From: Candidatus Hermodarchaeota archaeon
GTDB taxonomy: Archaea; Asgardarchaeota; Heimdallarchaeia; Hodarchaeales; Hodarchaeaceae
Reading direction: 5' to 3'
Assembly (NCBI GenBank): GCA_048886185.1
Contig: JBHLKY010000029.1
Location: forward strand, 11,881-43,453
Length of the DNA stretch: 31,573 bases
The notes below the pieces were generated by a model that was not told the origin of the DNA, did no database searches, and saw only the letters and a list, made by a program, of their open reading frames with translations. Of this stretch, positions 19,250-19,987 are shown in pieces. Positions within the stretch are counted from its first letter, which is position 1. Every line of letters begins with the position of its first letter. Made by a program: the position numbers and the translations under genes.

Positions 19250-19384
19250 TCCCTTGGCCGTGATTTGAACACGGGACAACCCGGTATCTGCTAAAGCCCA
19301 ACTAACAACCTTTTCATCGAATCATCCAAGGTGTGGCACCTGCGCCTACAGCCGGGGGCTCTTGCCAGGCTGAGCTACCAAGGG
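19250..19384 (-). tRNA. tRNA-Tyr(GUA) with a 60-nt intron at position 37/38
   Basis: Minus strand: CCCTTGG TA GCTC AGCCTGGCAA GAGC C CCCGG CT GTA G [intron] A CCGGG TTGTC CCGTG TTCAAAT CACGG CCAAGGG A. All four stems pair. C1-G72, A73 and the short variable arm are the archaeal/eukaryotic Tyr type. CCA is not encoded. Mature length is 75 nt. Confidence 0.97.
19286..19345 (-). ncRNA. tRNA-Tyr intron; predicted single-hairpin H/ACA guide RNA targeting U35 of pre-tRNA-Tyr
   Basis: GCGCAGGUGCCACACCUUGGAUGAUUCGAUGAAAAGGUUGUUAGUUGGGCUUUAGCAGAU. Hand-folded: K-loop, 7-bp upper stem, 5+8-nt guide arms complementary to the pre-tRNA around U35, and AGA box 15 nt from the pocket. The intron call is near certain; the guide function is predicted. 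Confidence 0.7.
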
Positions 19385-19403
19385 AGATAATTAATAGGCT
19401 TCC

Positions 19404-19414
19404 TTAATTAAAAA
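19404..19414 (-). promoter_or_regulatory. Candidate TATA box of the tRNA-Tyr gene
   Basis: TTTTTAATTAA on the minus strand, 20-30 nt upstream of tRNA position 1. Confidence 0.4.
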
Positions 19415-19987
19415 CCAATAAATTTCTTTTAATATAGTTTTTTTACCAAAAACTTACGTAATGACCGAATAATTATTTTTTTTAAATTCATTGTGATTCT
19501 ATTGACTGGGTGTTTTAACGTGATGATTGCATTTTTCTTAAATTCACTAAAAAATGGACATAAATGAGCTTCTTTTACAGTAATATCTGAATTCTTATTA
19601 TATATGAATTTCGCTCTAACACTTCTTTTAGCAAGTAAAAGTTCAATGTATGTCCTAAGGGCATTGATTTCTGACATTAATACTCTATATGCTTTTTCCA
19701 ATACTAATTCTTTTTCTTTGAATGAAAAACCCTCAAAATGATGGATTTGAAATTGTCATCAACTTGCGGGTATCGAAAACATTAAATCATCAAAAGAATA
19801 TTTATTAAAGCCAAAGGTAATTTCGTCAAACAATCTATAGAAACAGTAACCATCATTAATCAGTAGGATTAACTTGCTATTATATTACATAACACTAGAG
19901 AGGCGTGGAATTCTATGATTTGACATGTATGGCTAAAAACCTAAAAGGAAATTGTTGAATAGTTTGGTAAAGTTTTTCTTGAAAATA

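Follow-up and report, generated by a model that had tools for sequence, protein, structure and literature searches.

A tRNA-Tyr intron of a Heimdallarchaeia genome that may act in cis as an H/ACA-like guide for pseudouridine 35 in the precursor to which it belongs

The only tRNA-Tyr gene detected in the assembly of this Heimdallarchaeia genome (4.84 Mb, 35% GC) contains an intron that, with a probability of about 0.6, serves in cis and independently of an ACA box as an H/ACA-like self-guide, directing the formation of pseudouridine 35 ahead of splicing. The whole stretch of DNA that was analysed, here called the window, comprises 31,573 nt (C29:11881-43453). The gene and the elements of its intron are listed in Table 1, in which i1 to i60 denote intron bases.

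The gene is 93-95% identical to the copies of Ca. Heimdallarchaeota bin76 and bin6, which belong to the same genus. Neither the gene nor its intron was detected by default ARAGORN or by Rfam (gathering and E-value thresholds), and the intron mode of ARAGORN miscalled the gene as tRNA-Asn. In total, ARAGORN reported 23 tRNA genes for this genome, the majority of them intron-bearing and several probably miscalled. The neighbouring genes examined, encoding transporters, a DUF2334 protein and a B12-binding radical SAM protein, are unrelated. An A/T-rich stretch upstream of the tRNA (19385-19440, minus strand) could contain a TATA-like promoter.

Table 1. Coordinates of the tRNA-Tyr gene and of its intron elements in the window
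Feature	Position	Strand	Remarks
tRNA-Tyr(GUA) gene with intron	19250..19384	minus	C1-G72, A73
Exon 1	19346..19384	minus	C32 = 19351, U35 (predicted target) = 19348, A36 = 19347, G37 = 19346
Intron, 60 nt, canonical position 37/38 (after G37)	19286..19345	minus	boundaries from anticodon stem and homologs
AGGUG-CCA-CACCU hairpin (i5-i17)	19329..19341	minus	peculiar to this genome
5' pocket arm GCC (i9-11)	19335..19337	minus	small hairpin with G37-i1-i2 of the same molecule
Upper ('GA') stem, 10 layers, i12-21 with i31-41	19305..19334	minus	
K-loop (i20-32): tandem G20.A32 and A21.G31, A29-U30 preceding the 3' GA	19314..19326	minus	conserved in homologs
3' pocket arm UAGUUGGG (i42-49)	19297..19304	minus	complementary to G34-C27; U35-A36 left unpaired
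CUUU (i50-53)	19293..19296	minus	can extend 3' arm onto D-arm bases (guide fold) or make weak lower stem
GCAG (i55-58)	19288..19291	minus	3' strand of 4-bp BHB central helix
AGA (i57-59), proposed ANA box	19287..19289	minus	15 nt past first 3'-guide base; 1-nt tail
Exon 2	19250..19285	minus	

Two alternative folds can be drawn for the precursor. In the guide fold, a bipartite pocket pairs with the target through 3-4 bp on one side and 8 bp on the other and leaves U35-A36 free; the 5' part consists of G37-C11, G1-C10 and C2-G9, which enclose a 6-nt loop, with G3.U8 as a possible fourth pair. The pocket lies below a K-loop, the predicted site of L7Ae. In the splicing fold, an archaeal BHB motif at position 37/38 is formed by a 4-bp central helix (C32-G58, U33-A57, G34-C56 and U35.G55) and the 3' bulge A59-U60-A38, and the 5' bulge is relaxed because of a C2.A54 mismatch. 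This helix had been predicted earlier from the single sequence, and both its presence and its numbering were confirmed. The accompanying claim that the two folds are mutually exclusive also held, because i42-45 and i55-58 both pair with bases 32-34.

The design was compared across 85 distinct Asgard Tyr introns using a parser that requires a K-motif, a stem and a YRGY arm. In total, 66 of the 85 introns were accepted, including 54 of the 58 within the class of this genome; among the four class members that failed, three had passed an earlier version of the parser. The distance from the pocket to the GA pairs was 10 layers in 54 of the 66 homologs, 9 in 10 and 11 in 2, under a parser that permitted only 9-11 layers and gave a small bonus for 10. 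Ten layers is the productive stem length in H/ACA RNPs (PMC4652768), and a K-turn or K-loop on an upper stem of about this length, as in classic H/ACA RNAs, is thus found in the window and in those 54 homologs. The YRGY core of the 3' arm, directed against bases 31-34, occurs in all 66 parsed homologs, as the parsing criterion demands, with 4-9 contiguous base pairs. In 12/66 homologs, the 4-nt guide core even shares bases with the BHB strand. The BHB central helix comprises four pairs in 41/66 homologs and three pairs in 22/66.

The 5' arm varies together with its partner in the intron. The base preceding the stem pairs with G37 in 65/66 homologs, the next 5'-arm base pairs with intron base 1 in 62/66 (A-U 31, U-A 22, G-C 8 and G.U 1), and pairing to i2 is available in 45/66. 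The 61 Watson-Crick pairs with i1 compare with a mean of 26.5 and a maximum of 41 in 5000 permutations; the homolog genomes are kin, so that the counts are not independent and the permutation is not a formal p-value. All three types of Watson-Crick pairs were found inside a single genus. Mature tRNA was considered as a target and rejected: A38, the corresponding base of exon 2, was pairable in only 33/66 homologs, against the 62/66 for i1. The 5' arm therefore tracks intron base 1 and not exon 2, which identifies the unspliced pre-tRNA as the target.

None of 100,000 dinucleotide shuffles of this intron passed a strict motif test, which 42/66 homologs passed. A loose version was passed by 764 of 20,000 shuffles (157 of them with a 5' arm), and therefore only the strict test and the conservation were counted. 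Judged on sequence, the guide architecture is not due to chance.

The relative stability of the two folds was estimated in several ways. When the BHB bulges were forced open, the predicted energies for this precursor were -43.0 kcal/mol for the guide fold and -40.0 kcal/mol for the splice fold, and the guide fold lay below the splice fold in 57/66 homologs (median guide minus splice, -4.6 kcal/mol). With the bulges unforced and the upper stem enforced, the ensemble of this precursor preferred the BHB helix (0.72) to the guide helix (0.12), and proteins must therefore capture the guide fold. In these models, in which the energies depend on whether the bulges are forced open and which leave out K-loop and protein effects, the two folds lie within a few kcal/mol of each other, and proteins would decide between them. 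The free intron folded no better than its shuffles (z 0.24); folding energy is therefore no evidence for a guide design. Additionally, the guide fold was not seen among the minimum-free-energy folds of truncated precursors that mimic co-transcriptional folding, and therefore no kinetic argument can be drawn from them.

The following order of events is proposed. In the guide fold, the K-loop stem would bind L7Ae and dock onto Nop10-Cbf5(-Gar1). The strand 3' of the stem would pair with exon bases 34 to 27, and G37-i1-i2 would turn back to pair with i11-9. In the resulting three-way junction, U35-A36 alone would stay unpaired, at a distance of 10 layers from the K-loop above. Because target and guide are covalently linked, neither a lower stem nor an ACA would be required. 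U35 would be isomerised in this fold, after which the RNP would depart. The anticodon stem would then close, i55-58 and exon 2 would displace the guide arm (i42-45) from bases 32-35, and the relaxed BHB would be cut by EndA and ligated by RtcB. Since the folds are exclusive and intron bases form part of the target side, modification is expected before splicing, which would end the activity of the guide instead of starting it.

The intron family appears to be nearly ubiquitous among Heimdallarchaeia and to occur sporadically in other archaeal phyla. More tentatively, the family might be a two-state RNA that recruits H/ACA proteins for the pseudouridylation of its own anticodon in cis and that also controls when it is spliced: bound by the RNP, the guide fold would block the BHB until U35 is modified and so act as a checkpoint. 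The family might also be a forerunner of the intron dependence of eukaryotic pseudouridine 35. Heimdallarchaeia are generally placed closest to eukaryotes, and it is in this group that the design is found, while pseudouridine 35 is intron-dependent in eukaryotes.

The original prediction had put a different switch in its headline: an ANA box would be hidden in the splicing conformer, excision would activate the guide and circularization might turn it off. Formulated as a rival for this subclade only, excision would free the AGA and a lower stem, the linear intron would guide other pre-tRNAs, and the circle would be the off state. We regard this as unlikely. This genome and five close relatives do keep the AGA 15 nt from the pocket, but an ANA at the distance of classic H/ACA RNAs (14-16 nt from the pocket) is present in only 11/66 homologs, and 47/66 introns end at most 16 nt from the pocket, with 11/66 ending just 8 nt past the first guide base. 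Six of the 11 carriers belong to this subclade, three come from nearly identical genomes in a different family, and two more make up the rest. In the first nine, the motif is AGA with a 1-nt tail, and its AG is the BHB strand that pairs with U33 and C32; other homologs have GG, UA, CG and other combinations at this position. A57 and G58 are accounted for by BHB pairing, and the AGA of this intron is a by-product of the BHB.

The lower stem fared similarly. With the upper stem enforced, the free introns of the subclade allow 3.5-6 lower-stem pairs, yet at least three pairs are predicted in only 12/66 free introns. In place of the 7-9 bp of classic H/ACA RNAs, the window offers five weak pairs, and the lower stem adds about -0.3 kcal/mol. 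G1-C56, part of the basal stem envisaged earlier, has a probability of 0.05 in the linear intron and of 0.02 after circularization; the 4-nt AGAU loop predicted for the circle is correct only if this pair forms. Predictions for the free intron show its 3' arm as mostly sequestered (probability of 0.09 that A43 is unpaired), and the open-pocket fold reaches -4.0 kcal/mol against -12.7 kcal/mol. The AGGUG/CACCU hairpin, said to mask the 5' guide arm, does exist and has a probability of 0.53 when the precursor is folded in silico at 37 °C without constraints, but it is complete in 1/63 homologs. It is already broken in a 98%-identical gene (G003) and also in a metatranscriptome contig of a close relative.

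RtcB is encoded by the genome, and the archaeal tRNA-Trp box C/D intron is a precedent for guiding in trans, which it does both while still part of the pre-tRNA and after excision (PMC4090602). The ACA box, on the other hand, is dispensable for typical pockets (PMC7075261), and hiding it would therefore not make a switch; guides without lower stem and ACA function in vivo and in vitro (PMC11077068). Because ANA, basal stem and masking hairpin are not conserved, the hidden-ANA and circle-off switch adds little. The original prediction had also named another branch, refolding in cis with modification before splicing, and it is this branch that the i1 covariation, the short closing loops, the very short duplexes and the homologs lacking a 5' arm support.

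A second rival concerns the enzyme. Genes for Cbf5 (with an intact motif II, HGGTLD), Nop10, L7Ae and RtcB are present in the genome, together with two EndA subunits, one of which carries the catalytic motifs. Gar1 was missed at an E-value of 0.001, and its weak match was confirmed via the protein of a relative (E 2e-4). The intron fold might, however, serve to present U35 to aPus7, a stand-alone enzyme of the TruD family, or the K-loop and L7Ae might merely chaperone folding or time splicing, with Cbf5 not being the catalyst in either case. aPus7 was found in 59 of the 61 genomes searched and retains the lysine of motif IIIa, and a stand-alone enzyme could therefore make pseudouridine 35. This lysine is more important than the RH/KR pair of motif II, which is replaced by KDAA, KDAL, KDAH or KDAW in the aPus7 of this order; motif II is also altered in Sulfolobales (PMC2651775). 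Moreover, a hairpin with a YAGY strand and no K-motif occurs in many archaeal Tyr introns (49/70 against about 26 expected from shuffles, the genomes being kin and not independent), and eukaryotic Pus7 makes pseudouridine 35 in an intron-dependent manner (PMC2651775).

We nevertheless consider a role of aPus7 or a mere chaperone improbable. In this genome, the aPus7/TruD gene (G000:C3:120194-121068, L168) is in two pieces, residues about 100-236 being missing right after the catalytic Asp, which may reflect a pseudogene or an assembly error, while the intron design is intact. We know of no reason for aPus7 to require a ten-layer distance. The ten layers between pocket and GA pairs are the ruler of H/ACA RNPs (PMC4652768), and they recur in distant phyla. 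The changes in aPus7 lend mild support to an RNA-guided route. Most genomes of the genus carry the gene as one uninterrupted full-length frame; in one other, G011, it is likewise split.

Action in cis, as the preferred self-guide reading holds, was weighed against action in trans. Covariation alone cannot separate cis from trans between two precursors. The closing loops of the 5' arm measure 3-8 nt in all homologs but one, and total guide-target pairing is 5-7 bp in 19/66 homologs, which is weak for a trans guide. The same spacing from K-motif to YRGY was found beyond Asgard archaea, in Methanosarcinales, Woesearchaeota, Ignicoccus pacificus, Thermogladius, Thermofilales and others. In six non-Asgard introns, the stem is preceded by no more than 3 nt, so that there is no real 5' arm, and their target is a 5'-side loop on one continuous hairpin. 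They share this topology with the S. islandicus RNAs sR563 and sR109, which are self-modified by Cbf5 at uridines located 5' to the stem, via 2-4 bp with their own 3' arm (PMC11077068). Loop length, short duplexes, absent 5' arms and the sR563/sR109 topology favour cis. That the intron of one unspliced pre-tRNA guides U35 of another is very unlikely: every covarying pair could form between molecules too, and the tRNA-Trp C/D guide does act in trans from its pre-tRNA, but intramolecular versions of the same pairs should outcompete a second molecule, the duplexes go down to 5-7 bp, and pairing halts at the steric limit of the hairpin, such that only 7 of the 47 loops at this limit (3-4 nt) would continue pairing with a second molecule. 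A loose genome scan for other pocket-complementary sites returned 91 matches, too many to be informative. In one metatranscriptome, a single contig of depth 2 from an unspliced relative (which may be DNA) was found, and no splice or circle junction.

Other archaeal Tyr introns show different arrangements. Many of them (L033, L075, L089, L110, L123 and further loci of Nitrososphaeria and Bathyarchaeia, and also L232-L239) have no K-motif but carry a 5' hairpin followed by CAGC, which is complementary to bases 31-34. In the same introns, a second block is complementary to the D arm (CCAGGC with GCCUGG; CCAAGC with GCUUGG in L089). They may represent a related fold that presents U35. Most Thermoprotei Tyr introns are short or do not have the motif, which hints at a possible complementary distribution of the intronic motif and trans guides. 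Most of the Thermoprotei introns (L257-L280 and others) start with a conserved UGRGR at any length, perhaps a binding site for trans guides of the sR115 type. Truncated Tyr copies were observed in two genomes (see loci L008 and L216). In G008, a copy (L008, G008:C52:122273-122353) with exon 1 and most of an intron of the type described here lies about 2.4 kb from a complete Tyr gene, on the opposite strand, and the complete gene has a different intron type; G014 also has a partial copy. These copies are possibly integration scars. In addition, the tRNA-Tyr gene of several relatives (L009-L011, L013, L014 and L018) appears to be interrupted by a second intron, located in the D loop or the T arm.

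In the literature that was searched, in which "H/ACA" is not searchable as a term and subscription journals are mostly absent, no tRNA-Tyr intron was described as containing an H/ACA-like guide. For archaeal tRNA introns, the reported guides belong to the C/D class (that of tRNA-Trp, for which action in trans was demonstrated, and that of tRNA-Met, as a proposal), and the guides known to direct pseudouridine 35 have genes of their own. If true, an H/ACA-like intron acting in cis would be a new arrangement with guide and substrate in one molecule. The self-guide reading gives the long tRNA-Tyr intron a concrete function and predicts in which order modification and splicing take place. It is testable in organisms in culture that carry the design, Ignicoccus pacificus DSM 13166 and Thermogladius sp. 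KZ2Tp1.

Compared with known systems, the Tyr intron stands outside the classic H/ACA family, being without a lower stem and without a conserved ANA. It is closest in form to the atypical H/ACA-like guides, such as S. islandicus sR109, sR136, sR148 and sR563 and the H/ACA-like RNAs of Pyrobaculum (PMC11077068, PMC4652768), with which it shares a 10-layer K-turn or K-loop stem, a dominant 3' arm and the lack of a conserved lower stem and ACA. Unlike the Tyr intron, these guides are independent small RNAs that act in trans, mainly on rRNA; the module described here was found inside a tRNA-Tyr intron in every case, its arms match its own precursor, its predicted target is its own anticodon, and it must refold for splicing. 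The trans guides Sso1/sR115, Sto1, Sac1, Mse2 and Ape7 (PMC2651775, PMC11077068) likewise target U35, leave U35-A36 unpaired and recognise the exon-intron junction of the precursor, hence modification before splicing, and they too occur in hosts with an altered aPus7 motif II. They are encoded by genes of their own and have the lower stem and ACA of classic guides, whereas the guide of the Tyr intron lies inside its substrate. The archaeal tRNA-Trp box C/D intron (PMC4090602) also encodes a guide for its own tRNA species, but it directs 2'-O-methylation in trans through a two-box C/D RNP; the Tyr intron has a single K-loop, an H/ACA-type pocket and no Rfam C/D match across its length, and its action is predicted to be in cis. 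Finally, eukaryotic Pus7 modifies the same site of pre-tRNA-Tyr before splicing and needs the intron (PMC2651775), but it does so as a protein-only enzyme, with neither a K-loop nor an RNA guide.
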